Positions 2,982 to 29,629 of a stretch of 64,000 bases of DNA are shown here, one piece after another. The position numbers were made by a program, and so were the translations under genes. The stretch is taken from the NCBI GenBank assembly GCA_036339465.1, contig JAYZAY010000054.1, positions 24,872-88,871 on the forward strand, written 5' to 3'. This stretch comes from Myxococcota bacterium. GTDB lineage: Bacteria; Myxococcota; XYA12-FULL-58-9; JABJBS01. Under the pieces are notes generated by a model. That model searched no databases, had not been told where the DNA came from, and saw only the letters and a list, made by a program, of their open reading frames with translations. Numbering within the stretch: position 1 is the first letter of the stretch; each line of letters opens with the position of its first letter.

Positions 2982-4241
2982 TTAATCCACCCGCCAATAC
3001 ATGAATGACCGCGTGTTGGATAGTTCTGGGCGGTCAAAGAACGCCAGGGCTCCATCCCGCACCGCATAATCCCACTCTTCCCCGTCGTTGAGCTTATAGA
3101 ACTCAACCTCGGCGCCAAAAGTATGGTGAAACGGCGGCGTTTCGACCTTTTGAAGGGCGATACCCCCTAGAGAAAGCTGGTGAACCATTTGAATCCGACT
3201 CTCACCGGCCAACTTAAAGCCATTGAGATTCATCTGGCTGCCCACGCGCTCTTTTTGTAGGAGCCAGTAGACTTCTTTGGCCTTACTGGCCTCGGGAGGA
3301 AGCTTACAAACCAGGAGCCCCTGATTTATCTGAAACGGCGCATAGGGCATTTTCGTCCGTGAGGTTCGAATAAGGTTTTCAAGCTCATCCAACAATGTAT
3401 TGAAAAGCGGCCCTAAGCCCTGATGGTCATAAACGAGCTTCAACGAGGGAGGCTGTTTTTCCCGATAAATTGACACATCCAGGTAAAAACCATGCATTGC
3501 TCTGAAAATATCGTAGGGGTGGTAGCGAATATCCCCGTCTAAGTTCGCCAAAATGGCCTGGAATTCATAGAGCCCCCTTAAACATTGCTTCGCTGAAAAT
3601 AAACTTGCACCGCCCAAATAGTGTTCTTGGATATCGTCAACGAGGGCTTGATGAAACGCCTCTGTAATAGAATTGGCTTTTTCAAAGACATGGTCAAAGA
3701 ACGGGGAGCGTTGGGTAGACACGGTCGGAGGTATATATTCCTGGCTTAATGACCAAACCCCATCCACATCTTTTTCGAAATCCCCAAGTTTGAAGGAATG
3801 GAGGGAGGTTTCCGAGTAGGGGCTGGCTGATAACTGTATACGCTGAAGGATCTTGTCGATGCTCTCTTCATCTTCGGATTCCATGTCGCCAGAATGCAAT
3901 GTCTCAAACCCGGACTGGAGGTGTAAATAGAGAGAAACCTGTGAAGACCCAGCGATGTTCAAATTCATGGCATTGGGTTGTGTGTTTCCCGGGATATCCA
4001 CCAAAACGCCACTGGGTAAAACCAGGGTCAATTCCTTTAGGCTGACGATGCCCTCGAGAAATTGGAAAGGATCCCATTCAATACTTGCCAAACCCCATTG
4101 GGGGAGTGAAAAGTTTGTAAAACGAAGATTGCTTTCTTCCCGTAGAGAATGCTCTTGGGCATAGAAATGCTCTGGCAATAAGGCTTGCCCAATTTGCCAG
4201 TACACGCGTGCGGTCTGATGGTTGACTTTTCTTATAGCCAT
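2982..4241 (-). CDS. tssK: T6SS baseplate subunit TssK (IglD-like)
   Basis: ARVYWQIGQALLPEHFYAQE N-terminal motif, YIPP and YDHQ motifs; ATG at 4241 preferred because the ORF-track start lies inside a hairpin. Confidence 0.88.
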   Translation of the reverse strand: MAIRKVNHQTARVYWQIGQALLPEHFYAQEHSLREESNLRFTNFSLPQWGLASIEWDPFQFLEGIVSLKELTLVLPSGVLVDIPGNTQPNAMNLNIAGSSQVSLYLHLQSGFETLHSGDMESEDEESIDKILQRIQLSASPYSETSLHSFKLGDFEKDVDGVWSLSQEYIPPTVSTQRSPFFDHVFEKANSITEAFHQALVDDIQEHYLGGASLFSAKQCLRGLYEFQAILANLDGDIRYHPYDIFRAMHGFYLDVSIYREKQPPSLKLVYDHQGLGPLFNTLLDELENLIRTSRTKMPYAPFQINQGLLVCKLPPEASKAKEVYWLLQKERVGSQMNLNGFKLAGESRIQMVHQLSLGGIALQKVETPPFHHTFGAEVEFYKLNDGEEWDYAVRDGALAFFDRPELSNTRSFMYWRVD

Positions 4242-4301
4242 ATAGATGTAATGCCGATATTCGGGGTGTGGAGTCAATGGAAATCCGAAAGAGGAGAGAT
4301 G

Positions 4302-4329
4302 AAGTTCCCCACTCAAGGATGGGGAACTT
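4302..4329 (-). terminator. Stem-loop between hcp and tssK (terminator or mRNA-stability hairpin)
   Basis: Perfect 10-bp arms AAGTTCCCCA / TGGGGAACTT with an 8-nt loop, 16 bp after the hcp stop; no clean U-tract. Confidence 0.6.
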
Positions 4330-4345: not shown

Positions 4346-4981
4346 CTAAGCTGCGTTAACCTTGATTCCCCAGCCCCAGCAGGTTTTACTGTTTTTGGCA
4401 GTTGCAAAGTTCAGCGCTGACATAACATTCGCATCGGGGACCACCTCAAAATACATGTTATACATGTCAATTTTGATGTTGGGTGCGATTTGAGTGGGAC
4501 TAGATGCCAATGTCATTTGGATCGTGCCACCTTGGTCATTGATCTTCCCTTGCAGCGCAACGGCAGGAAAGCAACGCTCGAACCAGTCGGCTTCTTCTTG
4601 ATCAAATTGGCATGCCCAATAGTTGAGGTTTGCGATGTCTGACGTACCCACTGAATCTGTCTTCTTAGCCGATAGCTGATTGAAGTTGGCACTCGAGACA
4701 TAAACAGAGAAGCGGAGCGCATCACCGGCTGCGCCTCCCCAGGAGTACGAGTCCAAAATTGCGGCCACGGTTCCTGTTTTCAAGCCGGTATCGTCATCAC
4801 CAGTCAAACTAAAGTCCGGGGCACTTGTGTCGTCGTACTTATAGGGAGAGTAGACAACAATATCCGGCTCCAGGGCATAATCCAGAATGGTAAGGGTAGG
4901 TAGATATCCTACGGTCTTGTTCTCGCTCCAGTTAGGTAGACACGCTTGTCTCCAATCACACTGAACATTTGTTAAACTCAT
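4346..4981 (-). CDS. hcp: Divergent Hcp/TssD tube protein (IglC position)
   Basis: 211 aa, beta-rich, between tssC and tssK exactly as iglC is; strong AAGGAG RBS; paralogue at 17681-18295. No canonical Hcp motif, so the call is positional. Confidence 0.7.
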   Translation of the reverse strand: MSLTNVQCDWRQACLPNWSENKTVGYLPTLTILDYALEPDIVVYSPYKYDDTSAPDFSLTGDDDTGLKTGTVAAILDSYSWGGAAGDALRFSVYVSSANFNQLSAKKTDSVGTSDIANLNYWACQFDQEEADWFERCFPAVALQGKINDQGGTIQMTLASSPTQIAPNIKIDMYNMYFEVVPDANVMSALNFATAKNSKTCWGWGIKVNAA

Positions 4982-5036: not shown

Positions 5037-6524
5037 TTAGCCCAAACGCGCATCCACTCGAAGGTCTACATCCATACCTTCAAACTGAATATGAGGGAGA
5101 ATGGAGAGGTTACAGTGATACCAACCCACACGGCCAGGAACTTCGTTGACTTCGAGGCTATAGGCCTTGAAGGGGTAATAACGAAGCGTTAGATCGTCGG
5201 GGTTGACCACAGTGGTGATATACTTCGAAATCCAATGGTCAATTTGGTTGTAGATATAGGGCGCATCGGCGGTGCTACCTATATTGTCTCGCATAATGCA
5301 CTTGAGATAGTGCGCAATGCGACTGATGGAAAATGTGTAGGAGAGATTTGACACCAGCTGGGAATTTTCAGAATCTTTTGGGTCCTTGAAGTTGTGAGAC
5401 TTCTTAATGGATTGCACACTGAAGAAAACCGCGTCTGACGAACCCTTCTTCTGGATGAGGGGAATCAAGCCACTGTTGGCCAGCTCAAGTTCTCGGTAGT
5501 CAGGCATGGTGACTTCACATGGAAGCTTGAGTTGGGTCTCTCCGCGAAATTCGAATTTATGGCTGGGTAGTCCAGCCACCAGGCCGCCGGCCTTTGGCCC
5601 ACGAATATGCTGGCACCATCCTGACGTTTCGAAGGATTTTGCCAGATTACGGCCCATCAACAACGAAGCAGGTGCCCAAAGATAATCACTGTCCTCATTG
5701 CCAACCCTTTCTTCGAATGACACACCCTCGGCAGGATTTGTTTCATCGCTATAGGGACGTCGAGCCAGGTAGCGTGGCATTGTCAGACCGATATAGGCTG
5801 CTTGTTCGGTTTCCCGAAGCTGATTCCATCCAGCGTATTTTGGTGTGTCGAGCATACCCTCGATGTCTCGCAAGTTATTCACTTCGGCCATGGTTTCGCA
5901 TCCAAAAAATTTGGGTGAAACCGAGCCAACGAAAGGGGCATGGGAAGCCGTGGCGACTTTACCCATGGCCTTGAGCCAGAGAAGATCCTTTGGCGTATTG
6001 TTGAAATCATAGAGACCGAGGACCGAACCCCAGGGTGCCCCACCATACTGGTCATATTCGGAAACATAGATTTTTTTGAAGAATTCGGAGCCAGCAATAT
6101 CAGCGGCGTTCATTTCGAGATCTTCAAAAGCTTCTTCTTTGGACACGTCCAAAAGCCCGAGTGATATGTCTGCTTTAAAATTGACGTTATTACAGAGATC
6201 CTCAATGCCTCTCCACACCGACTCCACTTCTTGGAACGCTTCAGCGTGGTAAACTTCGTTGAGTTGATCTTCGATAAGCACATCGACTTGATTCACGAGA
6301 TCTGCGATACGCTGCTTATCAAAGCGGACGCCACCTTCGTCCATGTTGTATACAATGGTTGCAAGACTCGAGAGAAAGCGGTCTTCCTCGCTTACGTCCT
6401 CAGCCAAATCATTCATATGATTGGTAAGCATGGGTATTGGGGATTCCACTTCGCTGCTGAGCTTCACACTCGATAAAAATGAAGGTAAGTCTAATGTGAC
6501 TTCGGTATCTGTTTGATCTGCCAT
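5037..6524 (-). CDS. tssC: T6SS contractile sheath large subunit TssC (IglB/VipB)
   Basis: FQEVESVWRG, EYDQYGGAP, ASHAPF, GWCQHIRGPKAGG, SRIAHYLK and PHIQFEG motifs. Confidence 0.97.
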   Translation of the reverse strand: MADQTDTEVTLDLPSFLSSVKLSSEVESPIPMLTNHMNDLAEDVSEEDRFLSSLATIVYNMDEGGVRFDKQRIADLVNQVDVLIEDQLNEVYHAEAFQEVESVWRGIEDLCNNVNFKADISLGLLDVSKEEAFEDLEMNAADIAGSEFFKKIYVSEYDQYGGAPWGSVLGLYDFNNTPKDLLWLKAMGKVATASHAPFVGSVSPKFFGCETMAEVNNLRDIEGMLDTPKYAGWNQLRETEQAAYIGLTMPRYLARRPYSDETNPAEGVSFEERVGNEDSDYLWAPASLLMGRNLAKSFETSGWCQHIRGPKAGGLVAGLPSHKFEFRGETQLKLPCEVTMPDYRELELANSGLIPLIQKKGSSDAVFFSVQSIKKSHNFKDPKDSENSQLVSNLSYTFSISRIAHYLKCIMRDNIGSTADAPYIYNQIDHWISKYITTVVNPDDLTLRYYPFKAYSLEVNEVPGRVGWYHCNLSILPHIQFEGMDVDLRVDARLG

Positions 6525-6567: not shown

Positions 6568-7113
6568 TTATTCTGCTGCGGGTTCTTCTGCTGTGGCTAC
6601 AACTTTGGTTGGGACCTTAAAGCACGTGTGATCCTTAAGTGAACTCTGAAGAGCGGAAACCGCGTCAGGGCTATCGCTTAGAGCTTGCACCAAACGACGA
6701 AAATCTTTTCGGTTATCGAGGTTTGATTGTGCTTCCAGTAGTAGCTTCTTGAGCAACATCAATCCCTTCACTTTAGGAATGGCATTTCCCACCGCGAGTG
6801 GTTCAAAGGATTTCATGGATTCAATGGGGATTTCGATATCGAGACCCTCAGAATTTTCGGCATCGATTCTATTGGGCACAGTCATTTTAATGGAAACGCC
6901 CATATCTTTGAGAACCGCATTTAAATTGGTGCCATCGAGCTGGCGAATGTTACGAGCATCTAAATCGTTTGCCCGGTCGGTGGATGTTCCCGCAGATAAA
7001 TCACCCATCACCAGCATTCTGAAGGGCAATGTAACCTCTTCTTTTTGACCTTCTACCTGAGTTTTGTAAGTAAGAGTTAGTCTGGATTTTGGAATTTCTT
7101 GATTGATTGCCAT
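6568..7113 (-). CDS. tssB: T6SS contractile sheath small subunit TssB (IglA/VipA)
   Basis: IPKSRLTLTY...LPFRMLVMGDLS...SMKSFEP; directly upstream of tssC. Confidence 0.95.
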   Translation of the reverse strand: MAINQEIPKSRLTLTYKTQVEGQKEEVTLPFRMLVMGDLSAGTSTDRANDLDARNIRQLDGTNLNAVLKDMGVSIKMTVPNRIDAENSEGLDIEIPIESMKSFEPLAVGNAIPKVKGLMLLKKLLLEAQSNLDNRKDFRRLVQALSDSPDAVSALQSSLKDHTCFKVPTKVVATAEEPAAE

Positions 7114-7352
7114 CGGTTCCCCCAAGGCGTTTAGGACTCTAAGTCATTTATCTAAAATATGTTTAGGCAGTGACATTCTTACCACTCACCCACGATCCGA
7201 ACGGAGTTCATCCGAGCACACGCCCAGGCTTCGAGTCAAGAAATTTGTTCACCGGTTAGGAAGGCTTGAGGAGGGTATGGATAAGAAGGGGCGACTTGCT
7301 TACGCTCTCCAGCTTGAGTGACAGACACTCCATGGGGGGGCGGAGAGCATAC

Positions 7353-8243
7353 TCAACTTTTCTGAGCCGTGCTGCCGTTAAAGACAGTAATTTGGTGTTC
7401 AGAAACGCTAGAAGTTCTGATCTTTTCAAAACCGAGAAAGCCAGCGTTTCCGAGAGTCGCGGAACTGGCATGCTCTTCGACCACCAATACGACTTTCAGC
7501 CACAGTGGTGTTGCTTTTAATTTAGGAAGAAGTCGAGTGGACATGCGTTGTGTTACCAAGAGTGGCCAAGCAGATCCAGTCATCTGTTTTTCGTCCCGGG
7601 AATAGAGGATTATCAAAAAGCCACAGATGGTGGCATTGAAATGCTTACCCAAAGTGGAAGATCCATCCATGACGGAGTGCCCTGTTTGAGCGCCCGAATG
7701 GGGCAGCGCGTTTTTGAAACGTTGGCGCTCAACGACGACTTTGAGTTCGGGGAAATAGAGCGAGAAGAGCCAGCTAAGCCCACTGACGGAATCAAGACCG
7801 ACCATTTTTGCGTACGCGATTTTGTGAGCATCCCAGGATTCATAGAGATGTTGATCGAGTTCCACATAGAGTAGACTGATAAAGGATCGAAGGAGTTGAT
7901 TGTCAAAGAAACGAAGGAAATTGAAGAATGGATCTGGATTTTCCAGGCCTTCAGCAATCTGCATAAAGTAGGAAGGTAAGAGTCCCCGTTGATCGTGGAG
8001 CCCTAAATTTAGCCTCACCACCACATGCTTCGGTGGCCCGTCTTTGAAAATCACTTCGTGGACCAAGGCGTTAATCGACCCGCTATCCATATTGCTTTCG
8101 AATAAAATATCGTTCAATTCATAGCCGGCCCGAGCTAAGACGCGAATCAACGAAATCAAATCAAAATCTCGGGCCCGTCGAGTAATCCTATCCTGATTCG
8201 TGGCTCGTTTGTTGGGGCCTAAGGGGGCTGTCATGGACGCCAT
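7353..8243 (-). CDS. tssG: T6SS baseplate subunit TssG (IglJ-like)
   Basis: VRLNLGL...GLLPSYF, FLRFFDNQL and LGNAGFLG motifs typical of TssG. Confidence 0.8.
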   Translation of the reverse strand: MASMTAPLGPNKRATNQDRITRRARDFDLISLIRVLARAGYELNDILFESNMDSGSINALVHEVIFKDGPPKHVVVRLNLGLHDQRGLLPSYFMQIAEGLENPDPFFNFLRFFDNQLLRSFISLLYVELDQHLYESWDAHKIAYAKMVGLDSVSGLSWLFSLYFPELKVVVERQRFKNALPHSGAQTGHSVMDGSSTLGKHFNATICGFLIILYSRDEKQMTGSAWPLLVTQRMSTRLLPKLKATPLWLKVVLVVEEHASSATLGNAGFLGFEKIRTSSVSEHQITVFNGSTAQKS

Positions 8244-8289: not shown

Positions 8290-9357
8290 CTACTGTGAAA
8301 TAAAGGATTCCAGATCCACTTCGTAAAATTGTCTTAAGGTTTCCCATTTTATCCCGTCTCGCTCTTGCCAATGTCCGGAGATGGTTTGAATATTTTTATT
8401 GAGGTCCCCATAGAAATTGGCGAAGAGGGCGGGAAAATATTTCCTGGGGTCAAAGTTTTGGATCAAACCGGAGACATCATCTCCGACCAAGGCAGCTCGG
8501 TCTAATTTTTTTGCTTCCACCAAGGATTGAAAGGCTTTGAGCTTTCGAATCAAAGCCAATAGTTCGGCTGATGGTCCCTGCGTGCCAAAAAGGATATCCA
8601 ATATTTCGGATGCATCGGAGAGTTTAGCCTGTGGACGTATGGTGTCTGGGGTTGAGGTCGGGGAAAAATCCCCTTGTGATTCGGTCGATGGTGGTTTGTT
8701 TTCCTCTGACACGGACACCTCAGCATTTTCTTTCGGATTCTCTAAGTGGTGACCTAGATTTCCGAGTTCCCGAGTTAAACTGCTAAATAGGGTTTTTAGG
8801 TCAGCGGAATTGAGCTTGTCAAAGAGCCATCCTTCCAGCTCGCACACTTGCTCCAAAACCATCTGAAGTTTTTTCTCAGAAAGTCCCAAGACCCATTCCT
8901 GCAACTGTTCATCCTTCTTTAAACGATGGTATTCGATATTGCGAATGAGTTTTTCTAGCAGTGTTGCAACTGATTTAACGACATGTCTGTTCTTTTGTTC
9001 AGTTGGGCCAAAACCATCCCATGAGGATTGGAGAAAGAGTCGGAATGCTTCGCAGTGTTGGCCAAAAACAACCACACTTTCTTGGAGGAATACGTGATAT
9101 AAGTCGAAGCATAACAGCCTTATATCGAGAATGTTTTTATCGACCAACGCTTGAATTTCTTCAGAGGCTTCGAGATAGCGTTCTGTCTCGTAGAGATCGC
9201 AAATCGATTGAAAGCGTGGGTCAAGGGAATCTAGTCCGCTGACCATTTCAGCAGAAGGCGGCGGGTTACGGAGAAATTTAAGAGCTAACGTCATTGGCCA
9301 TATTTCTAACCTTAGTTTTAGAGGCTGTCCAACTTTAACGGTCTCCTTAATCTCCAT
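8290..9357 (-). CDS. iglI: IglI-family / TssA-like T6SS protein
   Basis: All-helical, LDIRLL near the N-terminus, low-complexity linker, C-terminal FDPRKYFPALFANF; immediately upstream of tssG, as iglI is of iglJ. Alternative start at 9294. Confidence 0.6.
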   Translation of the reverse strand: MEIKETVKVGQPLKLRLEIWPMTLALKFLRNPPPSAEMVSGLDSLDPRFQSICDLYETERYLEASEEIQALVDKNILDIRLLCFDLYHVFLQESVVVFGQHCEAFRLFLQSSWDGFGPTEQKNRHVVKSVATLLEKLIRNIEYHRLKKDEQLQEWVLGLSEKKLQMVLEQVCELEGWLFDKLNSADLKTLFSSLTRELGNLGHHLENPKENAEVSVSEENKPPSTESQGDFSPTSTPDTIRPQAKLSDASEILDILFGTQGPSAELLALIRKLKAFQSLVEAKKLDRAALVGDDVSGLIQNFDPRKYFPALFANFYGDLNKNIQTISGHWQERDGIKWETLRQFYEVDLESFISQ

Positions 9358-9539: not shown

Positions 9540-9923
9540 ATGTTTTTACATAAACATTTTATCGCGAGAGATGAGAAACCCGGCAATGTCATTGAGGATA
9601 TTTTGCGGAATCTTAAATGGATATTCCAGAGCAAGCGGGGTTGTGGGTATTTCATGGAAGAATTTGGTCTCAGTGATACGGGATTTCGAACCCCGGTGGA
9701 GATGGTCGAAATTCTCAGCGACGAGCTCAAAGAGAACATCAAATTATTTGAGCCGAGAATAGAATTGCTTGAAATTATCGATGACTATTGCCCTGAGACC
9801 GGCCGGGTTTGTTTGGAGCTCATCTGTCGATTTACACAGGAGAAGGACGTCCTTACCTTGAGACTCGATCCCAGAACCAGACAGATAGAAGTGGTTCCCC
9901 TCGAAGAACTTGAGAATCGTTAA
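9540..9923 (+). CDS. tssE: T6SS baseplate TssE (gp25-like)
   Basis: EDILRNLKWIFQSKRG...EFGLSD...IKLFEPRI gp25/TssE signature. Confidence 0.85.
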   Translation: MFLHKHFIARDEKPGNVIEDILRNLKWIFQSKRGCGYFMEEFGLSDTGFRTPVEMVEILSDELKENIKLFEPRIELLEIIDDYCPETGRVCLELICRFTQEKDVLTLRLDPRTRQIEVVPLEELENR

Positions 9924-9979: not shown

Positions 9980-11599
9980 ATGTTTATCAATCGACTTATT
10001 GTAGACCTAACGCTCAAAATCGACGGCAAATCCTACAAGATAGAATCAGGTAATATTAAAAATCTAGATCTCAAGCTGAGTGCCTATGGTTATGAAGCGA
10101 CCTTGGATTGGTGGAAAATATGCTTAAACAAATCGAGTGAAGATACCATTAAGGCCGCTTTTATGAAAAATTCTCTGATCGAAGTCACCATGTCTATCGA
10201 TCGTTTTTTCGATAAAGGTGGTGAAGCGGCAGCTCCGATTAAACTGAAAGGAATTGTCACAACCAAGCGCTTCCATGCCAGAGCGTTCGAAGATGTTAGT
10301 GGGGAACCTGTTTTACACCGTCATTATTTTATCTCATTCAAAGACCCGGCCAGTGTCTTGTGGGGCCAGCACTTTCCATGTGATCTGTACACCAAGAAAT
10401 CGGTTAAAGATCTGATTGAAGATCATAAAACCTCGAATTTCTTACTCAGTTATGCTTGCACACCCATGACGACCAAGCACCCATTTCTTTTTCTTGGGCT
10501 GGGGCAAAAGGAGAGTTCCGCGAGTTTTTATGATTTTGTGATATGGTATTTGAAAAGCGAAAATGCAGGCATGTATTATAATGGGACAAAAAACACTTAC
10601 ACACTCACAACAAAAAAAGATACGAGTGCGAAAATAAAAGATTTTCCGGTAGCAGATGCTGATATTGTGAATATAGAATTCACCGAAACGCCACGTTACA
10701 GCGTCAATGTTTTGAACAGCTATGCGACTAAATCGACCACGGAAAAAGTTGCAAACAAAGATGAAGTGAAGGGGATTCGGAAGGATATTCTTATTGCATC
10801 CCCAATTGCCAGCACTTCAAAATCAATCAAGACAAATCAAACGAGTAAACTCGTCGATGAACAACCCTTTCTCACCATTGAATACGCTCGATATCCCACC
10901 GTCGATGCATTGCCTGGCACGATCTATCTTTTTAACAAGAGCGACTGGAGCAAAGAGCTATATCAATCCAACAAGAAATTCCGACTTCGAGAACTTCGAC
11001 TTTTGGCTGAAGCTGAATCTCAATTGGGCACCGATGATGCTGACGAGGATTCAAATTCGTACAAAATTCAACTGACTTCGGTTCTAGAAGAAAAAGAAGA
11101 AGTGCATCACCCGTTACCAGAATTTGTCACACCCTATTGGCCTGCCAAAGTTGAAGGGAAAATTGTCAGCGAAATAGGCAAGGAGACCGAAGAGACTTAC
11201 CAGCTTTACGAAGATGACTCTAAATCCCTGGAGCAGTATCACGTAGAGATCCCTCTTTGGAAGAAACAAAAAATAATGGTAAATCATGACCCAAATTTAT
11301 TTCCTGGGCATTTTTATTTCCCTCTTTATAAGGACCACCGAGTGCTGGTTGATATGTCGTTCAAAGAAGCATGGATTAAGCGGCACCTTGAATGGCGTGC
11401 AGGCGCCAAACTACCAAATGATAAACAGGCTAACCACATTCTCTTTGGCAAAAACCCCAAAGACAGCACTTCCATGGTGCATGCTTATAAAGAGAAGAAA
11501 CCTGTTTTTAGCATTACGCGTCTTTTGGATAAAGACACCCAACTCATTCAAGTTTCCGAGGGGGAAATTCTTATTGAAACCAAAGAAAATGAAAAGTAA
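9980..11599 (+). CDS. VgrG hub-only protein (PdpA/gp27-like), lacking the long beta-helix spike
   Basis: 539 aa following tssE; gp27-like pattern (KGIVTTKRF, YFISFKDP, SFYDFVIW), OB-fold-like VEGKIVSE...GHFYFPLYKDHRVLV, ends after only a few beta-strands. Confidence 0.6.
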   Translation: MFINRLIVDLTLKIDGKSYKIESGNIKNLDLKLSAYGYEATLDWWKICLNKSSEDTIKAAFMKNSLIEVTMSIDRFFDKGGEAAAPIKLKGIVTTKRFHARAFEDVSGEPVLHRHYFISFKDPASVLWGQHFPCDLYTKKSVKDLIEDHKTSNFLLSYACTPMTTKHPFLFLGLGQKESSASFYDFVIWYLKSENAGMYYNGTKNTYTLTTKKDTSAKIKDFPVADADIVNIEFTETPRYSVNVLNSYATKSTTEKVANKDEVKGIRKDILIASPIASTSKSIKTNQTSKLVDEQPFLTIEYARYPTVDALPGTIYLFNKSDWSKELYQSNKKFRLRELRLLAEAESQLGTDDADEDSNSYKIQLTSVLEEKEEVHHPLPEFVTPYWPAKVEGKIVSEIGKETEETYQLYEDDSKSLEQYHVEIPLWKKQKIMVNHDPNLFPGHFYFPLYKDHRVLVDMSFKEAWIKRHLEWRAGAKLPNDKQANHILFGKNPKDSTSMVHAYKEKKPVFSITRLLDKDTQLIQVSEGEILIETKENEK

Positions 11600-11607
11600 C
11601 CTCTAAA

Positions 11608-13365
11608 TTAGGTTCCTAATTCCTCGGCATCGCTTTCAACAACTTTTTCCATCAGCATCCTCAATTCGGACAATACAGGAAATACGGTTGATTGCTGTTT
11701 GATTTGGAGATACCCGCTTCGGTATTGTTCTTCACACCAAGAGAGGTCGATTTTCCCATCTTGTTTTTCAGGGTAAAGAGAATAGAGCTCAATTTGGCCG
11801 GGAATAAATTCTGAGCCGAGCTCCATGCTTAGGACTTGATAGATTTCGCTTCTGAACGAGTTTTTATTTTCATTGCTTAATGCACCAAAGATGCCCGCAT
11901 CGAGAAATATTAGTAAATTGATAGATCCCTGTTGATATCCCTTAGCATTTTGAGCATTCAAAACCACGCAGTCGTAAACTGCTTCAAATCGACAAACCAG
12001 ATTTTGAACCTCAGTTTTAGGATACGTTCGTGCACCACGTACACCGAACATGGTGCCCACAAAATAGTTTTCTCGATGGTTTGGACGATTGAGGATGCTC
12101 AACCCGTAATGGTGTTCGTTAAAATCGAGGGCGGGGGTGCCAAAAAATCCACTGCTATCCATTTGTGATTCGGCTCCACCGCCGAAATCCATGAGACTCC
12201 AGGGATTTCCCGGAGAAGGAAATATTCGCAAATGTGATACTGATTTTAACTTTTGTCCAAATAGGATGATACCTCCATAAGCGGAATTCGCCAGGATATT
12301 CATCGCCCATCGCATCTCATTGTTGAAAAACTTAGAGAAACGCTCCCATGACTCCCAATCCATGGGCATGGCCACGTCCTTAAACCAGAGCCGTATGGGC
12401 GCTGATTCAGTAGGAGGGCGACTCAATAGCCAATCGCGGGTCCTATGGTTAAGCCCAACAACCGTTACTTCGAAACCATCTGAACATTCTGCGTTTTCAA
12501 TCAAGTGGTCGGGGTCTGTCAAAACAAAAGTTGCTCCCGAGAATAAAGACACTAAGAAGAGCCACGGTTGATATTGCAGGTCATGAAAACCAGGGGCACT
12601 CAATTTATCCCCCTCTTGAAGGCCAAAGAGAAGAAAAGCATCGCTTAAGAGTCGATGATAAAGATCACTTGCTTTTAATTCTACCGGCTCTGTGGAATTG
12701 GTACTAAGTGGCGAAAAGAGGCGCATGACCACCTGTTCTGCCTCGTAACCATGAACTTCGTGGTGAATAGAACCAAATTCAATTTTAGGAAGAACGCCTG
12801 AGGGGAGTTGTTTGTCTGCAAAATCTCCGAGAAATACTTCATACTTATTCTCAGTCACCACAAAAGCCGGTTCCAATGTGCGCAAACGGTTCTTTACAAA
12901 AGTTCGGCCCTGGGGTGGAATAAACGAAAAGATGCCGCCTAATTTCAGCGTTGTGAGCATGGCGATCAGAAAATTCAGGCCAGGATGAAGAACCACGCAA
13001 ACCACACTCCCTACTTCAAAACCTTTGTCCAGCCATTCACTGGCAACTTGTGATGCTTGTGTGGTCAAATAATCAAACGAATATTCCTGCCATCCGTTGA
13101 TGGCATCATAGAGCCGAAGAGCGGGAAGTCCCTTTCCTTGATGTGGGTGTAGTAAATCCCAAGAAAACACATAATGTTCAAATATTGAAGATTTTCGGGC
13201 GCCATGGATGCTTTGAAACTCTTCAAATAATGAGGACCAAAACGACTCCGGTTCTGCATAACTTCGGTGTAGCCAATTTTGGGGTTGAATTGTGGGTACC
13301 TCAACCCGATCAGTACGCAAGCTCGACCTTATCTTACTAAAGTCAAATTGATACTCTATTGTCAT
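11608..13365 (-). CDS. Acyl-CoA synthetase (AMP-binding/ANL) fold protein with a degenerate catalytic signature
   Basis: ACS-like N-terminus (WLHRSYAEPESFW), GFEVGSVVCVVL..LTTLKLGGIF, C-terminal EVQNLV..AVYDCVV..LGSEFIP; the TSGSTGxPKG loop is replaced by FSPLSTNSTEP. Confidence 0.7.
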   Translation of the reverse strand: MTIEYQFDFSKIRSSLRTDRVEVPTIQPQNWLHRSYAEPESFWSSLFEEFQSIHGARKSSIFEHYVFSWDLLHPHQGKGLPALRLYDAINGWQEYSFDYLTTQASQVASEWLDKGFEVGSVVCVVLHPGLNFLIAMLTTLKLGGIFSFIPPQGRTFVKNRLRTLEPAFVVTENKYEVFLGDFADKQLPSGVLPKIEFGSIHHEVHGYEAEQVVMRLFSPLSTNSTEPVELKASDLYHRLLSDAFLLFGLQEGDKLSAPGFHDLQYQPWLFLVSLFSGATFVLTDPDHLIENAECSDGFEVTVVGLNHRTRDWLLSRPPTESAPIRLWFKDVAMPMDWESWERFSKFFNNEMRWAMNILANSAYGGIILFGQKLKSVSHLRIFPSPGNPWSLMDFGGGAESQMDSSGFFGTPALDFNEHHYGLSILNRPNHRENYFVGTMFGVRGARTYPKTEVQNLVCRFEAVYDCVVLNAQNAKGYQQGSINLLIFLDAGIFGALSNENKNSFRSEIYQVLSMELGSEFIPGQIELYSLYPEKQDGKIDLSWCEEQYRSGYLQIKQQSTVFPVLSELRMLMEKVVESDAEELGT

Positions 13366-13389: not shown

Positions 13390-13842
13390 TCATCGCCCCT
13401 GGACCGCAATTTTTTGGATTTCGTGGGCACCCAATGAAATCTTTGCTTCAGAGGGCAGGGGATTTCTAAACATATAATACCAATTAGGTCCGGGATCTGT
13501 GAATAAGAAATAAACGGCGATATTGTCTTCATCGGGCGTACGGATTTCAAGATGAGAGATTTGGCCAGGGAGAAGAACTTCTTTGGATAATACGGTGCTT
13601 TCTGCCGTTGAGCGGAAGACGTTGCTGGCGATACTCTTGTAATCACTCGAAGCCAAGGCATCGGAACCCGAGCTTCGAACTACGACGTAAAATGGCTCGC
13701 CGCCGTTGGTTGCTTGTGACGTTTTCACTTGGATTCGCATCATCGATGTACATCCCGACACACCTATCCAACCACAAAGAAGAGCTACAAGTGGCACCCA
13801 TGCACTTCGGCGAAAGCTCAAGTATTGTTGATAGTATCTCAT
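13390..13842 (-). CDS. tssJ: T6SS outer-membrane lipoprotein TssJ (IglE position)
   Basis: Lipobox VSGC, TNGGEPFYVVVR and VLLPGQ; ATGA overlap with tssM. Confidence 0.75.
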   Translation of the reverse strand: MRYYQQYLSFRRSAWVPLVALLCGWIGVSGCTSMMRIQVKTSQATNGGEPFYVVVRSSGSDALASSDYKSIASNVFRSTAESTVLSKEVLLPGQISHLEIRTPDEDNIAVYFLFTDPGPNWYYMFRNPLPSEAKISLGAHEIQKIAVQGR

Positions 13843-16800
13843 TGTTGGTCCCTATAGACGATTTTCCGAGTGTTGGGAAGAATTTCGAATAGAGTCCAAG
13901 GATTCTCATATAAGACAAAACTTGCCTCAATATTGACCCGAGAATCATCAGGAATAGGTAGATCCCAAGACCAAGTATTGTGGCTATCACGAGCCTGCTT
14001 GAGCAACTCATAGAAGCTCCAATAGGAATCTTGAGTCACCATGGGTTGCGGATAAGAAGGTTGACGATTTTCGACATCGGTAAATTGCGCTCCAAGTTGG
14101 GAAACATGCCGCATGGTCCAATCAAGGTTTACTTTGGATTGAAAGGGTTTTTGATTGATATTCACGAGGGAATTCTTGCCCCAACTGAGATAAACCAGAG
14201 TCAATGTGTCACTCTGACCTTTTACCATAGGGCCAAAGGGGACCGGCTCAATGGTGAATTCTAGGTCTTTGGGGTTACCCTCTGAGTCCCATAACCTTTT
14301 TGCCAATCGTGTGGTATTATTTAAGGCAGTGATCATGTCAGAGGGCAGATGAAGTCTCCGCAATAATGATGGTTTGGCCATATACTCGCCGCCCTTCAGA
14401 ACCGTGACCGGAAGCACGTATTGATCCACCAACTGGAAAAACCGACCTAAGGTGGGATGTAAATGAGCTTCGAGTTCCTGTGGGTCGACCTCTTCAGTGC
14501 CATTGTGGTCAAAAGGAAACTTTCTCAATACGGGTCGAATACTTGGGAGGAGGTCGTGGGCCCAAATTTTGGCGACGGTTGTTTCTAGTTCTCTGAGGCC
14601 AACCAAGTACAATTGATGGATAGGGGCTAAGAAGGGTTGCCTTAGCTCTTTTACAATGCCGACACTGTTGACCCATTGGTTCACAATGTTGAGATAGGTG
14701 CCGTCCTGCCTCATAAGGGTATCGAGGGCCTGGCTCCCCACCGGGTTTAACCGGGCTTTGAGCCCCACCGCAGTGGTTGAGGTTTCTTCTGTGGCCGAAG
14801 CTGTTTCAGTTGCTGTTAAGGTGCTATGCAACTGGTCCAAAATAGCCCGATACTTATCAAACTCAGGATAGACCCCATCGGTTCTCTTCATCACTGTATT
14901 AAAAGAGCGAAACCGAGCTAGGGCATTCACCATAGGGTCAAAGAGCTCGGTTCTCGATTTTTCAAAATTGATATTGGTATTCTTATGCACAAATTGAAGA
15001 AAAGTTGTATAAGGTGAGACGGGCTGCAAAATTTGCTTAATTGCGACCAACAGACCTTCCACCGACCCCACATTTAGACGAAAAGAATGATAATAATTTA
15101 ATGTTTGTCGAGCATACTCGGAAGCATATGCATCCATTTTCCGATAGATAAATTGCTTTAATTCCCATCGGTCCTGTGGGGCTAAATCAACCGCCCCTAA
15201 AAGTTGGTCAAATTCCATGATGGCGGGGCGAATTTCTTTATTAAAGGCTGCGTGAGTATAAATGCCCTCTACCTGAGTTTTGCCTAGGAAGAGGGAGTTC
15301 CCATTATTGGTAGGATTTAAAACCACGGCCGAGTACTGAGTTGGATCCGAAAAAAAGGTCGAACCGTTTCGAGTGGCATTATGGTCCATAAAGGATTTGA
15401 CGATGTGCCGGATCCGGCTAGTTTTCATGATCGCATACCAATCGATATTTCGAATCATGAATTGGGTATCTTGAATTTTGAACTCCCAGCTCCTTGGTTC
15501 AGCTTCTTCTGCACTCGGATACTGTTTGGCTTGTTTGATTAGCCCAATTAAATTTGGCAGGGTTTCTGGGGGAGATTGCAAATCTATAAAGCGACTGCCT
15601 ACAAAGAGCTGAAGAACGGCGCCTATTTTTTCGCTCATTTCGGGGGGCAAACTATTCTGTTGGATCTGCGGAAAGAACATTTGGTATTGCTTGGTATCGC
15701 TGGCAAAGGGCGAATCTTTTAAGAGCGTTAGAATTGTTGCACCATGTCTGAATCGCTTTGCGAAAGAAAGCTCATCTAAGAGGTCAGAACCAATGGCCTT
15801 ATGTTTCTCAAGTTGCGACTTTGTGACATACTTATTGCGCTTAATGAGTTCGCGATAGGTTGAAAATGCCAGACTCCACTTTTCTAGATCTTCAATTCCT
15901 TTAGATTTAAAGGTCGTAGGTAGGGTTTTCTCCGAAAGTTGTCCAGAATGGGGTTCGAGAGTATTTTCGATATAGACTTTGATGAGTTCAGCGGGAAGTC
16001 CCGAAGCTTTTTGCCAATCATCCAAATTCTGAGAAACAAATAATCCCATAGCGTTACTGCTGGAAGCTCGTACCAAGCCTTGTAAATACAACGTTTTCAA
16101 GTGCGGGTCACTGGATAGTAAGGCCTCTTGGTAGGCGGGTTTGATTTTTGTTTCGAGAATAATTTTGGATGCTTCTTCTCGAATATATTCTTGAGCCACC
16201 CCAAGAAATTCAGGCACAAGAACATCTCGTGCGGCATAGGAAGAAACACCGGTAAAATTGGAAACGGATGCCAAATCCTTTGCTGCAGCATCTGTTACCT
16301 TTGAAACGTTTAAAACCTCTAGGGCCCGGTCAGCACGCTGCCACAGGTTTCTTTCGTAGGAGTACAAACCTACCAGGAGTGCGATCATCACGCCTGTCAC
16401 TGCAGCGGCTAAACGGCGATGCCGCAGGAGGGGAGCATCCGCCTCTAGTCCGTAATGTTCTGAACCAGCGGCGAGAGGGTTGTTGGTATTGGAAGGATAG
16501 TCTTTTGAGGTGAAATATATTCCCCCAAGAGTGGGTAGATAAGAAAGGGATTCGGGTCTCAGAAGACTGTCTAAAACCTCTGATAGGGCTCGGAATGATT
16601 CCGGGGCCGCCTTCAAATACCGAACCACCTGTTTGAATTCGTCAGCGGTGCAACCACTGAGGGCAATGGGTAGATAGGTCCCACATTCATCAAATGCGCG
16701 CTGTATACTGCTTTCTGTGGTCGATTCCGGGTGAAGAACCGTGGGGATGGCTCGATTCTTGGTGAAGGCACTAAATTCAGCGTAGCCTTGGACTTTATCC

Positions 16801-17486
16801 ATTCCCGTGATGGCTAGCCGCACTTCGACACAACCCCCATGGGCCCAAGAAAGGAGGTTGAGTTTCCCACGTATCCTTTCGGCGATCTTTTCCCGTGCAT
16901 CGGGGGTTAACGCACCCAGCTCTTCAACTGACATCACCACCACTACAGTGGGTGGAGTATTCTTGAATAATTTTTTCCACAGACGAAGGATGGCCTGTCG
17001 GGTGGGTTTTGAAGTGTCGTTGAGAAGGGAAGCTGAGATTTCTTGTAAGACCGTTTTGGAACCCAAATAGATCTTCAAGTCGACATCTTGTTCATATTGG
17101 GTTAGGAATTGATTCGCCTGACGCTGCCAATCGGTACTCGAGTCAATTAGCGCGGATTTCCCACTCCCCGACGTCCCTAGAACCACGATGGGCTTGAATC
17201 GTTGGAGGCTTCGCTGAAAAGTTCTGGGTATTTCCCGTAAGAACCGATTCCAAATCCTAGTCAGTGCGTCTTTACGCATCTTAACCCCGGATATCGGTAC
17301 AACTGGCCGCTCTTCGCTCGTGGTTTGTTCTTGTTTTGCCTCTTTCTTTTTCTTTCGCCAGTACCAAATACCGACAATCAATGGGATGAGGAGAATAATC
17401 AGCTTGAGTACGGCAGGATGAATCTTCACACCAAAGCCCTTGAGTATTTTGAAGAATGCCTTGAGTTCTTTCACGTTTCCGACCAC
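13839..17486 (-). CDS. tssM: T6SS membrane subunit TssM (IcmF/PdpB-like)
   Basis: 1215 aa, N-terminal TM helix, Walker A GTSGSGKS, second TM near aa 360, KFPFD and SYWSFYELL C-terminal motifs. Confidence 0.9.
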   Translation of the reverse strand: MVGNVKELKAFFKILKGFGVKIHPAVLKLIILLIPLIVGIWYWRKKKKEAKQEQTTSEERPVVPISGVKMRKDALTRIWNRFLREIPRTFQRSLQRFKPIVVLGTSGSGKSALIDSSTDWQRQANQFLTQYEQDVDLKIYLGSKTVLQEISASLLNDTSKPTRQAILRLWKKLFKNTPPTVVVVMSVEELGALTPDAREKIAERIRGKLNLLSWAHGGCVEVRLAITGMDKVQGYAEFSAFTKNRAIPTVLHPESTTESSIQRAFDECGTYLPIALSGCTADEFKQVVRYLKAAPESFRALSEVLDSLLRPESLSYLPTLGGIYFTSKDYPSNTNNPLAAGSEHYGLEADAPLLRHRRLAAAVTGVMIALLVGLYSYERNLWQRADRALEVLNVSKVTDAAAKDLASVSNFTGVSSYAARDVLVPEFLGVAQEYIREEASKIILETKIKPAYQEALLSSDPHLKTLYLQGLVRASSSNAMGLFVSQNLDDWQKASGLPAELIKVYIENTLEPHSGQLSEKTLPTTFKSKGIEDLEKWSLAFSTYRELIKRNKYVTKSQLEKHKAIGSDLLDELSFAKRFRHGATILTLLKDSPFASDTKQYQMFFPQIQQNSLPPEMSEKIGAVLQLFVGSRFIDLQSPPETLPNLIGLIKQAKQYPSAEEAEPRSWEFKIQDTQFMIRNIDWYAIMKTSRIRHIVKSFMDHNATRNGSTFFSDPTQYSAVVLNPTNNGNSLFLGKTQVEGIYTHAAFNKEIRPAIMEFDQLLGAVDLAPQDRWELKQFIYRKMDAYASEYARQTLNYYHSFRLNVGSVEGLLVAIKQILQPVSPYTTFLQFVHKNTNINFEKSRTELFDPMVNALARFRSFNTVMKRTDGVYPEFDKYRAILDQLHSTLTATETASATEETSTTAVGLKARLNPVGSQALDTLMRQDGTYLNIVNQWVNSVGIVKELRQPFLAPIHQLYLVGLRELETTVAKIWAHDLLPSIRPVLRKFPFDHNGTEEVDPQELEAHLHPTLGRFFQLVDQYVLPVTVLKGGEYMAKPSLLRRLHLPSDMITALNNTTRLAKRLWDSEGNPKDLEFTIEPVPFGPMVKGQSDTLTLVYLSWGKNSLVNINQKPFQSKVNLDWTMRHVSQLGAQFTDVENRQPSYPQPMVTQDSYWSFYELLKQARDSHNTWSWDLPIPDDSRVNIEASFVLYENPWTLFEILPNTRKIVYRDQQ

Positions 17487-17680: not shown

Positions 17681-18295
17681 TTATTCACCCCATTGTTTCA
17701 CCAAATTCACGGTTTTTCCTAGGGAGACTTGAAGGTTCGATTTCTTTCCTTCTTGGGGAACAACTTCAAATTCCATGCGATAGACTCCAATATTGATGTT
17801 CTCGGAAATTGGGGTCGCGGTGGATTGGGTAAAAAGCTGCATCTCGCCACGGGTGGTGTTTAAGGTGGCGCTGGCTCCCGCCGAGGGTGACTTAACGTAG
17901 GCACCGTCATACCAGGAATTAACGTCTTTATCGAAGGAGCAAATGAAGTAGTCTAGTTTCAAATTGGTATTTCGAAGTCCCTGGCTGAGTTTTGATCGGA
18001 TGGAAGCACTGGTACTTGCACTTATGTAAGCAACGATTCGGATGGGGTCAAGTTCGCTCCCCCCGTATTCAAAACTCTCCATAACACCAACACATTTAAT
18101 CGAAGATCCCTTTTGAACTCTCGAATCGGGATAGGGGTTCCAAACCTCGATATCCTGTTTGAGGTTCAAGCCACCACAGCCACTCCACTTTACCACATAG
18201 CCTAGGGTGGTGGTTCTCGCGGGATTTCGGTTGAATGCCTCTGGCCAATCACACTCAAATTTTATGACATTACCGTCTGCCACGGTTACTCCCAC
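17681..18295 (-). CDS. hcp: Second divergent Hcp-like tube protein
   Basis: Shares CDW..A, T.GY, DI.V..PY, C.FD.....W, NI.I..Y.M.FEVVP and WG with 4346-4981. Confidence 0.65.
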   Translation of the reverse strand: MGVTVADGNVIKFECDWPEAFNRNPARTTTLGYVVKWSGCGGLNLKQDIEVWNPYPDSRVQKGSSIKCVGVMESFEYGGSELDPIRIVAYISASTSASIRSKLSQGLRNTNLKLDYFICSFDKDVNSWYDGAYVKSPSAGASATLNTTRGEMQLFTQSTATPISENINIGVYRMEFEVVPQEGKKSNLQVSLGKTVNLVKQWGE

Positions 18296-22040: not shown

Positions 22041-22058
22041 TCCACCATTCTCCGGATT

Positions 22059-22439
22059 CTAATTGATTTTGACCGTAGGACATCCGGGCGCTTGGATCTT
22101 TCCCAAAGGGGAAGGGATGGGGGCCACACAGGTGAGATGGGCGGTCTTATCTCCCACACGCGCTGCGGGAAGGCCGTAGATTTTGACCTTCTTTGAACCA
22201 TCCACCACAAGCCCTGGTCCCCCCGGAACACAGGGACCCAATAGGCAAGGTGTGGTAACACTTCCGACAATCGCCGCAGGCTGGCCACCAATCAAGACAT
22301 TGGGCACCCCAACGACAATGGGCAAGGGTAAGGGAGAATGGGGGACTGGGGTTGGTACTGGAGCAGGTGGGTGAATTGGCGCATGACAGTGGGGGCTGGC
22401 CTGTTTAACTAAATCACCAACTCGAGCGGCATTGGGCAT
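22059..22439 (-). CDS. PAAR-repeat spike-tip protein
   Basis: NAARVGD, PAAIVG and PAARVGD repeats with metal-type Cys/His residues. Confidence 0.95.
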   Translation of the reverse strand: MPNAARVGDLVKQASPHCHAPIHPPAPVPTPVPHSPLPLPIVVGVPNVLIGGQPAAIVGSVTTPCLLGPCVPGGPGLVVDGSKKVKIYGLPAARVGDKTAHLTCVAPIPSPLGKIQAPGCPTVKIN

Positions 22440-22471
22440 TTCTCACTCCAAAATTAAGCAGGTCGAAAAAA

Positions 22472-22858
22472 TTAATTGAGATGAATCATCTTACCTCGGA
22501 CGCGAACCTCTCCCAGGCCTGTCACTTCAACATCCTCACCGGCTTCCAATTTCATGGATTTCGCACTTTTCACCACGCAACCTTCCTCAGCCTCAAGGGT
22601 GATATTCTTGGCGCAGAGGTGAAGGTGCTCGCCACCTTCAAGCCGTAGTTTTGAAGAGGCTATAGCAATGGTGGGGCCAGATTCTTCCATGGTGATTTTT
22701 AGTATCACGCTTTTTTGGGGGATCTCAGAAACCATTGCTTGGGTTTGAATTTCAAGATTGAGGGTATCGCCTGGGGCAATCTCCACCCGCTGACTTCGGC
22801 TCGAAGAATCGACTTCATGAAGAATAGATTTCTCTTTGGGTAAAATAAGAGCAGACAT
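22472..22858 (-). CDS. Short gp5/VgrG C-terminal-like mini-spike protein
   Basis: 128 aa with serial beta-strands (LHLCAKNITLEAEEGCVVKSAKSMKLEAG) ending RVRGKMIHLN; directly upstream of PAAR. Confidence 0.5.
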   Translation of the reverse strand: MSALILPKEKSILHEVDSSSRSQRVEIAPGDTLNLEIQTQAMVSEIPQKSVILKITMEESGPTIAIASSKLRLEGGEHLHLCAKNITLEAEEGCVVKSAKSMKLEAGEDVEVTGLGEVRVRGKMIHLN

Positions 22859-26174: not shown

Positions 26175-26190
26175 CCAGACCCACTCCCCC

Positions 26191-26886
26191 TCAAAAATTC
26201 GTAGAAAAATCGATGTAGCCCACCAAAAAGAGCAAGCAATAGACACCCAACACAGTCCCTAAGCCAAAAACGTAGTATCGCCACGGAAAATCAACAAGCT
26301 CCACGCCTTGGTCATCCATGGCCTCTCTTGTTGCCGGGGTGAAATTTGGGAGGGGTATTTTGGCTTCTAGGCGGGCGAGATAATCCCCGAGACGGGCTTC
26401 TGTGTTGATGAACGCGCCCTTAAAACCATTTCGTAAACAAAAATAGAAAACTTCGAAAACCAAGGGTAGGGTCTGGGGGCGTCGCAGCAGTTCATCGGCA
26501 GTGGTGAAAAATATTTCTCCACCATTGTCAATATTGAACAATTCCTTTTGAAGTGGAGACCAGATCCGAGCCTTATCGGATAAATATTGATGCACCATCT
26601 CATCGAAATGAATGGTTAGTGGAAAGAGACAATAATAAACTTCACGTTCGGTGAGTTCTATGGAAAGCTGTTGCTTCAACCACCCGAGTCGACTTCGAAT
26701 CAACGAGCGTAGTTTGACAATATCCGCTCCTTCAGATGTCCCGTCGAGGTATTTTCCGCCGGGAAGTGAAGCCGCTTCACCTTGTAAACGTAGAAACTGC
26801 TTTTCTTCAATCAGAGCTTCTCTGCAGGCAGTCTCGGTTTCGGTTACGACCTGCTCGATTATAAACCATAGCTGTTCACCACTCAT
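26191..26886 (-). CDS. tssL: T6SS TssL/DotU
   Basis: HFDE, WSPLQKELF..DNGGEIFF, EVFYFCLRNGFKG and a C-terminal TM helix. Confidence 0.93.
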   Translation of the reverse strand: MSGEQLWFIIEQVVTETETACREALIEEKQFLRLQGEAASLPGGKYLDGTSEGADIVKLRSLIRSRLGWLKQQLSIELTEREVYYCLFPLTIHFDEMVHQYLSDKARIWSPLQKELFNIDNGGEIFFTTADELLRRPQTLPLVFEVFYFCLRNGFKGAFINTEARLGDYLARLEAKIPLPNFTPATREAMDDQGVELVDFPWRYYVFGLGTVLGVYCLLFLVGYIDFSTNF

Positions 26887-28966: not shown

Positions 28967-29629
28967 ATGGCCAGCTCCAGTAAACCGTTTGTATGTCGTG
29001 TTCTGGTGAGCAAAACCAGCGGCGTGAAAATCGAAGTCGAAAATGAGAGTGGTAAAATCACCCAAACAGTCCATATGGACGGAACCAAAATCGAAACCAC
29101 GGTTAAGGGAGAGAAAAAGACCAGTACGATTACCCAAAAAGACGGCAGTTTCGTTTTTAAAGTGAAGGGTGACAAGGAAACCAGCACCATCACCCAAACC
29201 GATGAAAAAGTTACCATCGAATGCAAAGACTACACGGTGGATGCTGAAACCATCACCATGAAATCAAAAAAGGAATTCAAGCAGGAGAGCAAAGACATCT
29301 ACTCGGCGAGTAGTACCAAAGCACTCACCGTGAAGTCCTCATCCACGGCCACGATTCAAAGCTCCAAAACCATGACCCTTAAGTCCAGTGCGGCCCTCAA
29401 TGTACAAGCGACCAGTGCCTTAGCGCTCAAGGGGCGTACTGCACAGATAAAAGCTTCTCAAAAAGCGACTATTGATGGGGGGTTGCAAGGGGAGCTTAAG
29501 GGCACTTCGGTTAAAGTGAGTGGGAAAAGCACCAATGTCAGTGGTGATATGACCCAAATCAAAGGTAAAATCACCAAGATTCAGGGGACGGCGGTGGCTA
29601 TTTCTGGTCCCGCGATCAAAATAGGATAA
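28967..29629 (+). CDS. vgrG: Short spike-only VgrG (gp5 beta-helix), Francisella-VgrG-like
   Basis: 220 aa made almost entirely of short Lys/Ser/Thr-rich beta-strand repeats, ending ISGPAIKIG; no hub domain. Confidence 0.7.
   Translation: MASSSKPFVCRVLVSKTSGVKIEVENESGKITQTVHMDGTKIETTVKGEKKTSTITQKDGSFVFKVKGDKETSTITQTDEKVTIECKDYTVDAETITMKSKKEFKQESKDIYSASSTKALTVKSSSTATIQSSKTMTLKSSAALNVQATSALALKGRTAQIKASQKATIDGGLQGELKGTSVKVSGKSTNVSGDMTQIKGKITKIQGTAVAISGPAIKIG

Follow-up and report, generated by a model that had tools for sequence, protein, structure and literature searches.

A predicted acyl-CoA-synthetase-like pseudoenzyme encoded in Francisella-type T6SS loci of myxobacteria and its possible role at the spike tip

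T6SSii is given as confined to Francisella in the available text of two 2026 papers (PMC12955703, PMC13584744), and NCBIfam already has an IglI 'family' model. The accessible parts of other work place the nearest DotU homologues in Stigmatella, Haliangium and Desulfonatronospira (PMC3326028) and report homologues of IglG and IglI outside the genus Francisella (PMC7431613). The FPI has iglF flanked by vgrG and iglG, and IglG is a binding partner of IglF (PMC5349215; also excerpts of PMC5014421), the target being the N-terminal (helical) extension of IglG according to the same excerpts of PMC5014421. In the available portions of the respective papers, deletion of iglF cuts sheath assembly to about one sheath per 400 cells (PMC5481754), the mass of IglF is 65.0 or 67.9 kDa (PMC3502320, PMC5924787), and the protein is secreted and a proposed effector (PMC5014421, PMC3502320) or is regarded as a cargo bound to the tip, its role being unclear (PMC8651086, PMC13669386). 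The FNI-type island of Francisella, going by an excerpt with Table 5 of PMC4230796, has a DUF4280 gene directly after dotU and no gene of ~570 aa. For other tips, DUF2169 was reported to shield hydrophobic PIPY tips (excerpts of PMC11883445), and the thiolase-like TvpD is a proposed PAAR co-chaperone (excerpts of PMC13373197).

The T6SS locus of the window

The window, a stretch of 64,000 nucleotides from a Myxococcota bacterium (assembly GCA_036339465.1, contig JAYZAY010000054.1), carries between positions 2982 and 29629 the full set of genes for a Francisella-type T6SS, here outside Francisella, spread over both strands and including TssE and a Clp ATPase. On the reverse strand lie genes for TssK/IglD (2982..4316; TIGR03353, E 4e-94), an IglC-fold tube protein (4346..4981), the sheath proteins TssC/IglB (5037..6524; top PDB match IglB at E 6e-128, the next at 5e-101) and TssB/IglA (6568..7125; PF05591, E 2e-36), a weakly assigned TssG/IglJ-like protein (7353..8243; no match of its own, the homologue L001:13551-14417 matching TIGR03347 at E 1.8e-4) and an IglI family protein (8290..9357; NF041244, E 6e-64, above cut-off). 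These are followed on the forward strand by genes for a TssE/gp25-like protein (9540..9923; PF04965, E 1.3e-6; present in 23 of the 27 homologous loci described below) and a PdpA-like spike hub (9980..11599; family profile against PdpA 6u9e, E 1.1e-6). Upstream of the gene under study, and like it on the reverse strand, are an IglE/TssJ-type lipoprotein gene (13390..13842; PF22361, E 6e-18; NF041245, E 6e-14, 52 bits against a cut-off of 75), tssM/pdpB (13839..17486; PF14331, E 8e-9; TIGR03348, E 1e-18) and a second IglC-like tube paralogue (17681..18295; profile shared with 4346-4981, E 1e-44). Two such paralogues per locus were also seen in L005, L006, L010 and L026, and one in the other loci. 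The reverse strand further encodes a Clp-type unfoldase (ClpB or ClpV; 22934..25552; Pfam), DotU/TssL (26191..26886; PF09850, E 3e-16) and TssF/IglH (26903..28561; PF05947, E 1e-24; NF041246, E 2e-9), and the forward strand a short Francisella-type VgrG needle (28967..29629; NF041249, E 3e-5, under cut-off; homologue in 18/27 loci).

The tube protein at 4346..4981 was recognized by fold alone, its sequence profile giving no PDB match; its model (pLDDT 87) superposed on IglC 2qwu with a VIA Z of 15.2 (rmsd 3.2, 184 aligned), the next match being Hcp at Z 8.0. Among the Francisella-type NCBIfam models matched in the window, that for IglI alone was above cut-off, and those for IglE, IglH and the short VgrG were below. 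The sole tip gene of the window encodes a PAAR protein (22059..22439, reverse strand; PF05488, E 1.5e-12), and a six-frame search of the window detected no DUF4280 (best E 0.5). Next to it on the same strand is a weak, short VgrG-like fragment (22472..22858; NF041249, E 0.0025). Together with a Trm112-like and SAM methyltransferase protein (TIGR04345, E 8e-23, under cut-off) these genes make up a possible tip/effector module at 20943-22858, for which no homologues were found in the 27 loci. A second, weak IglI-like gene (25665-26246; NF041244, E 0.0012) lies between dotU and the Clp gene. Elsewhere in the window we noted a 600-aa, effector-like protein (41751-43553) with an eCIS-core-like domain (PF13699, E 1e-5) and a Gly/Ala-rich hydrophobic middle, a phospholipase D family protein with a long N-terminal extension (45640-47403), and a eukaryote-like protein with Sushi and repeated EGF domains and a lipoprotein-like start (50132-52408).

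The IglC-fold tube, PdpA-like hub, short VgrG, IglE and IglI identify the machine as a Francisella-type, T6SSii-like system, and not the ordinary T6SS that the initial annotation had taken it for. FPI counterparts in loci of this type are IglA, B, C, D, E, G, H and I, DotU, PdpA, PdpB and the short VgrG, with IglJ matched weakly, so that all structural FPI genes but iglF are represented; the IglG-type gene (DUF4280) belongs to the related loci and not to the window. The FPI is without TssE (available text of PMC9600919) and without ClpV (excerpts of PMC5481754), whereas a TssE-like and a Clp ATPase gene are present here, so that the locus is a T6SSii-like sister system rather than the FPI itself. 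The right comparison therefore shifts to IglF and IglG. The gene under study is one of the few conserved locus genes without an FPI name.

Fold and catalytic residues of the encoded protein

The open reading frame at 11608..13365 on the reverse strand (585 aa, 66.7 kDa, ATG start) begins 24 bp after the stop of the gene at 13390-13842 and ends 8 bp from the convergent gene 9980-11599, and its GC of 0.44 lies between those of its neighbours (0.41-0.47). Its position 24 bp after tssJ on the same strand was thus correctly described in the initial annotation, the upstream gene being IglE-type and preceded by tssM/pdpB. A promoter/terminator scan gave counts at or under those of shuffled sequence. 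AMP-binding (PF00501, E 2e-8) was the sole family returned by a Pfam scan of the protein, so that DUF2169, PRK06147 and DUF1795 domains are absent, and the NCBIfam ligase models all scored far under their cut-offs (best 30 bits against 639). The family profile matched Salmonella Acs 2p2f with E 5e-24 over profile positions 61-534 of 573. An AlphaFold2 model built from 148 sequences (pLDDT 93, pTM 0.93) had acetyl-CoA synthetase as its top Foldseek match (E 3e-25, TM 0.68), and VIA matched it to ANL enzymes generally (Z 29.1, rmsd 3.0, 348 aligned). Profile, model, Foldseek and VIA all bear out the ACS-like framework throughout that had been noticed initially, and the whole chain is predicted to adopt the ANL fold, with large N-terminal and small C-terminal adenylation domains.

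A phmmer scan detected 493 clusters at E<=1e-3, of which 228 remained at E<=1e-30; among the best 150, most were full length, with 25-34% identity to the window protein. The alignment used here (A2, n=148) holds the window protein, three other hits and 144 of the 149 non-self sequences among those best 150, three long and two fragmentary rows being left out. The median length of the family is 575 aa and the median mass 62.9 kDa (10th-90th percentile 60-65 kDa); no signal peptide-like N-terminus was found in it. The nearest Atlas cluster is mostly from Myxococcota and automatically named long-chain fatty acid-CoA ligase. In a quick tree of 47 rows a fully supported branch separated 38 family rows from nine ordinary ANLs, with the window protein and that of L026 as deep branches. 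Most likely the protein descends from an enzyme of the acetate-CoA-ligase type and is catalytically dead.

The catalytic motifs were compared with Acs column by column, taking the Acs residues there to have the roles commonly assigned to them, K609 being additionally flagged in PDB titles. At the A3/P-loop (12685..12717, reverse strand; residues 217-227) the window protein reads FSPLSTNSTEP, which aligns column for column with Acs YTSGSTGKPKG in the family profile against 2p2f. This replacement, already pointed out in the initial annotation, is family-wide: the strict P-loop pattern was matched by 0/148 family members and 0/27 locus proteins as against 8/12 ordinary ANL controls (returned, along with four family members, by a word-index search with A2), and in the columns S265 is Pro in 123/148, G266 is kept in one and K272 in eight. 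At the degenerate A5 segment (12271..12300, reverse strand; residues 356-365) Acs WWQTETGG aligns with ILANSAYGG; the GG is retained, the E417 column is Ala in the window copy, and across the family T416 is kept in 4/148 and E417 in 1/148. At the degenerate A7/A8 hairpin (12052..12096, reverse strand; residues 424-438) the D500 and R515 columns, placed by hand from the family profile-Acs alignment and the strands of the model because the profile alignment is ragged there, are kept in 0/148. The absence of YGxTE and TGD motifs noted at the outset therefore holds for the window protein, and reflects a loss throughout the family. The A5 and A7 patterns were each matched by 11 of the 12 controls; unanchored, they occur anywhere in the chain in nine (A5) and 14 (A7) of the 148 members.

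The A10 segment (11746..11772, reverse strand; residues 532-540) reads PEKQDGK538ID in the window copy, so that Lys538, the counterpart of Acs K609, is still present; the initial annotation was right about the motif loss and overlooked this residue, which is Lys in 14/148 of the family. A family-specific helix motif, DxxWCxxQYxxGxL, follows directly. The adenine loop GEP is retained in part (E388 in 91/148, P389 in 61/148, with Met at the Glu position of the window copy), the hinge Gly is kept in 120/148, and the chain has ~34 residues fewer than Acs near the R191/R194 region, which presumably serves CoA. Conservation peaks mostly at Gly, Pro, Trp and other hydrophobic residues, and the strongly conserved polar residues are D70 (93%), D242 (95%), R310 (89%), D540 (91%) and C544 (78%). 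Over nine catalytic columns, 116 of the 148 members keep none, 29 keep one and three keep two. With these columns lost, we are confident that canonical adenylation is very unlikely in the family, although residual ligand binding may be conceivable. By their aligned sequences the members are pseudoenzymes in which the ATP-, Mg- and ribose-binding residues have been lost family-wide. An alignment to ACS/ANL structures, suggested with the initial annotation, thus gave a fold match with degenerate catalytic motifs; its readings as a pseudoenzyme and as a repurposed scaffold are supported, and an ordinary active CoA ligase is contradicted by the lost motif columns.

Genomic linkage of the family

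Two peptide patterns, taken from 12 similar members, were scanned against GTDB and yielded 241 candidate stretches and 27 confirmed loci; since the patterns were drawn from similar sequences, the sample comes mostly from one sub-clade. For the deep sub-clades, the evidence of linkage comes from the window, L026 and three read-through proteins. By title, 25 of the loci are from myxobacteria, one from a delta proteobacterium MAG and one from a MAG titled Pseudomonadota. The next gene was a T6SS gene in all 27, namely DUF4280 (IglG-type PAAR-like) in 23 and iglI in four, which confirms the T6SS linkage originally proposed; no homologue in this sample stood apart from such genes. In the loci sampled the family is a steady part of the Francisella-type T6SS, and its tightest gene coupling is to the tip gene. 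The two genes are within 34 nt of each other or overlap in 19 of the 23 loci, and in the remaining four the gaps of 192-874 nt contain no evident gene in the forward frames. The 874-nt gap (L003:1904-2777) apparently consists of short tandem-like repeats, judging from translations. DUF4280 was inside the fetched DNA in 26/27 loci and is absent from the window, where the PAAR gene lies 8.7 kb upstream of the pseudoenzyme gene. The end of a tssM-tssJ operon, as the gene's position was first described, is true of the window; as a conserved position it recurs in one locus only (L026), and there DUF4280 comes next.

In most loci iglI and a tssG-like gene lie one or two genes further on. L005, L006 and L010 keep the pseudoenzyme-DUF4280 pair intact with a 1-nt overlap and have the other genes, including iglI and tssG, on the opposite strand. 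TssC was found in 24/27 loci and the PdpA-like gene in 23/27, the remainder being short contigs or beyond the flank. There is one pseudoenzyme copy per locus, of uniform length, and the neighbour clusters contain no conserved small immunity-like gene and no carrier protein, thioesterase or other biosynthetic gene. L018 and L021 are near-identical loci on different contigs of one MAG, a duplication or a binning artefact. Pairwise identities of the pseudoenzyme track those of ten T6SS genes at similar divergence (Spearman 0.55-0.82), as for a structural part; the values are highest for TssF (0.82) and TssK (0.75) and among the lowest for DUF4280 (0.56). Correlation with all ten genes indicates co-inheritance and picks out no single partner, and shared ancestry alone suffices for correlations of this size.

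In the DUF4280 proteins of the loci, two conserved Cys enclose a 24-residue, Ala-rich insert that is free of charged residues in 24/24 sequences; the proteins of 128 aa match NF041248 only from position 53-56 onward. Three unnamed proteins continue from the pseudoenzyme family into DUF4280, P0139 in frame and P0105 and P0224 through frameshifted calls. The in-frame fusion may be a gene-calling artefact. We did not take fusion as strong evidence, since among the 120 longer DUF4280 proteins listed there was one family fragment (P0224, frameshifted). The same 120 include P0251, an ordinary ANL with an intact P-loop and a frameshift read-through into DUF4280, an adjacency due to chance or perhaps a hint at an ancestral pairing. 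The tail of P0030 did not map to DUF4280. Complex prediction for the L007 family protein (residues 1-565) with its DUF4280 protein gave 0.02 twice, against a mark of 0.32 and with no controls folded, a score that speaks neither for nor against an interaction.

A possible role at the spike tip

We propose, at about an even chance, that the pseudoenzyme is a chaperone or adaptor of the spike tip that matches IglF in gene slot and size class. A dead ANL scaffold would have become a dedicated part of the Francisella-type T6SS, encoded together with the structural genes and keeping pace with them in divergence, in most of the sampled loci immediately ahead of the tip gene, DUF4280. In the cytoplasm it might bind the nascent tip, that is the PAAR-like cone, possibly together with the short VgrG and PdpA, and shield the uncharged, Ala-rich cone insert up to the point at which the baseplate receives the spike. 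Through such binding and shielding it would be needed for efficient sheath assembly, with release or co-ejection at firing, as reported for IglF of Francisella. The partner in the genome of the window could be the PAAR protein of 22059-22439 or a DUF4280 protein encoded elsewhere in the genome. Tip shielding is favoured by the lack of charge in the DUF4280 insert, the kind of surface that DUF2169 covers on PIPY tips (excerpts of PMC11883445). Against the tip reading speak the window itself, with no DUF4280 and its tip gene apart from the pseudoenzyme gene, iglI as the next gene in four of the 27 loci, the low identity correlation with DUF4280, the absence here of the IglG extension bound by IglF, the tip gene of the FNI-type island without such a neighbour (accessible part of PMC4230796), and the wide occurrence of DUF4280 proteins without a reported partner of this kind.

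T6SS effectors are usually patchy and variable. A secreted cargo, in which the dead scaffold travels on the tip and exerts its effect inside the target cell, where it could for instance bind CoA, acyl chains or a metabolic partner, would fit a gene adjoining the tip gene and the proposed effector role of secreted IglF (available text of PMC5014421 and PMC3502320); the single copy of uniform length per locus, a divergence like that of structural genes and the lack of a conserved immunity-like neighbour make it unlikely. An assembly factor away from the tip, working with IglI, TssG, TssF or TssK at baseplate or sheath initiation and replacing, for example, TssA, which T6SSii lacks according to the accessible text of PMC13584744, would account for the proximity of iglI and tssG-like genes in most loci, with iglI next in 4/27, and for the top identity correlations with TssF and TssK. 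It is likewise unlikely, as the rearranged L005, L006 and L010 keep the DUF4280 coupling with iglI and tssG on the other strand.

The initial annotation had offered, as one of its options, a ligand sensor gating the machine; acting through TssM, TssL or TssK, such a sensor would bind AMP, a nucleotide or acyl-CoA and gate firing via the membrane complex according to metabolic state. The retained hinge Gly, A5 GG and GEP Glu (91/148) are compatible with this, as is the tssM-iglE-pseudoenzyme order shared by two deep branches, the window and L026. That order, however, is found in 1/27 loci as against DUF4280 as conserved neighbour in 23/27, and the pocket is not conserved: the ribose Asp and Arg columns stand at 0/148, the P-loop is rigidified by Pro, ~34 residues are gone near Acs R191/R194, and the window copy has lost the GEP Glu. 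We found no specific support for gating and regard it as quite unlikely. Very improbable is an unusual enzyme, still active through a rebuilt site, that would acylate or adenylate a component of the T6SS: strong conservation of D70, D242, R310, D540 and C544 and the Lys538 of the window copy could be cited for it, but all phosphate-, Mg- and ribose-binding columns are lost, Lys538 is unconserved (14/148) and no biosynthetic genes are clustered. For a CoA ligase of the usual kind, or a pseudogene in decay whose place in the operon is accidental, there is the automatic cluster name long-chain fatty acid-CoA ligase; motif loss, the T6SS linkage of 27/27 loci, the NCBIfam score (30 bits against 639) and an intact, uniform family of hundreds of clusters largely refute it, leaving a negligible probability.

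Taken together, our results point to an accessory subunit that is real, conserved and, it appears, of a kind undescribed so far, in a branch of a known machine that is itself new. In the openly accessible literature surveyed, we found no description of an AMP-binding-fold T6SS component or of this myxobacterial locus, and acyl-CoA, AMP-binding, IglF and Myxococc- do not occur in the available text of a 2026 review of T6SS accessory factors (PMC13584744). The new part would be a stand-alone ANL pseudoenzyme with hundreds of members, mislabelled as fatty-acid-CoA ligases in databases. It marks Francisella-type T6SSs in cultivable Corallococcus, Pyxidicoccus, Myxococcus, Nannocystis and Sorangium, hosts that offer a safe route to working out the assembly of a split PdpA-VgrG-DUF4280 spike.

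With Salmonella Acs and other ANL enzymes the pseudoenzyme has in common the ACS-type N-terminal arm, the small C-terminal domain and structural Gly, Pro and Trp residues. It differs from Acs in the replacement of the P-loop, A5 Thr/Glu, A7 Asp, A8 Arg and, across the family, A10 Lys, in being ~34 residues shorter on the CoA side, in its own WCxxQYxxGxL motif and in its T6SS context. ANL folds without catalysis are known from the inactive adenylation domains of NRPS modules, such as FmoA3. These sit inside biosynthetic megaenzymes, whereas the pseudoenzyme is stand-alone and encoded in a secretion locus. DUF2169 (TvpA) and TvpD (PRK06147) are likewise products of accessory genes beside a non-canonical PAAR-like tip, and TvpD is a metabolic-enzyme fold reused at the tip, as we propose for the pseudoenzyme; however, their folds are unrelated to it, and their tips are DUF4150/PIPY in T6SSi rather than DUF4280 in a T6SSii-like core locus. 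The likeness to the chaperones DUF2169, TvpD and Eag is thus one of presumed working only.

The likeness to IglF lies in the slot directly before the DUF4280 tip gene, held in 23/27 loci though not in the window, and in size, IglF having 65.0-67.9 kDa, the family 60-65 kDa (10th-90th percentile) and the window copy 66.7 kDa. In Francisella, IglG has the extension that IglF binds, whereas the DUF4280 proteins here are without it. For the window protein and 18 of the 148 members no match named IglF was among those listed from NCBIfam, which may hold no IglF model; none was among the PDB sequence and fold matches listed, where ANL enzymes filled the lists. An Atlas search with ANL families excluded gave scores under 0.9 only, and tblastn against plasmids found three partial ordinary ligases and no IglF. 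The link between the pseudoenzyme and IglF is thus inferred from gene slot and size. A bolder and doubtful reading is that Francisella IglF is an eroded member of the pseudoenzyme family and that the FPI branched off from an ancient and widespread T6SSii lineage found in myxobacteria and their relatives; on the same tentative reading, the spike of that lineage would have a dead acyl-CoA synthetase as a core subunit. If this were true, IglF would gain a fold and become studiable in harmless soil bacteria, and the gene-slot match offers a concrete idea for IglF that can be tested cheaply.
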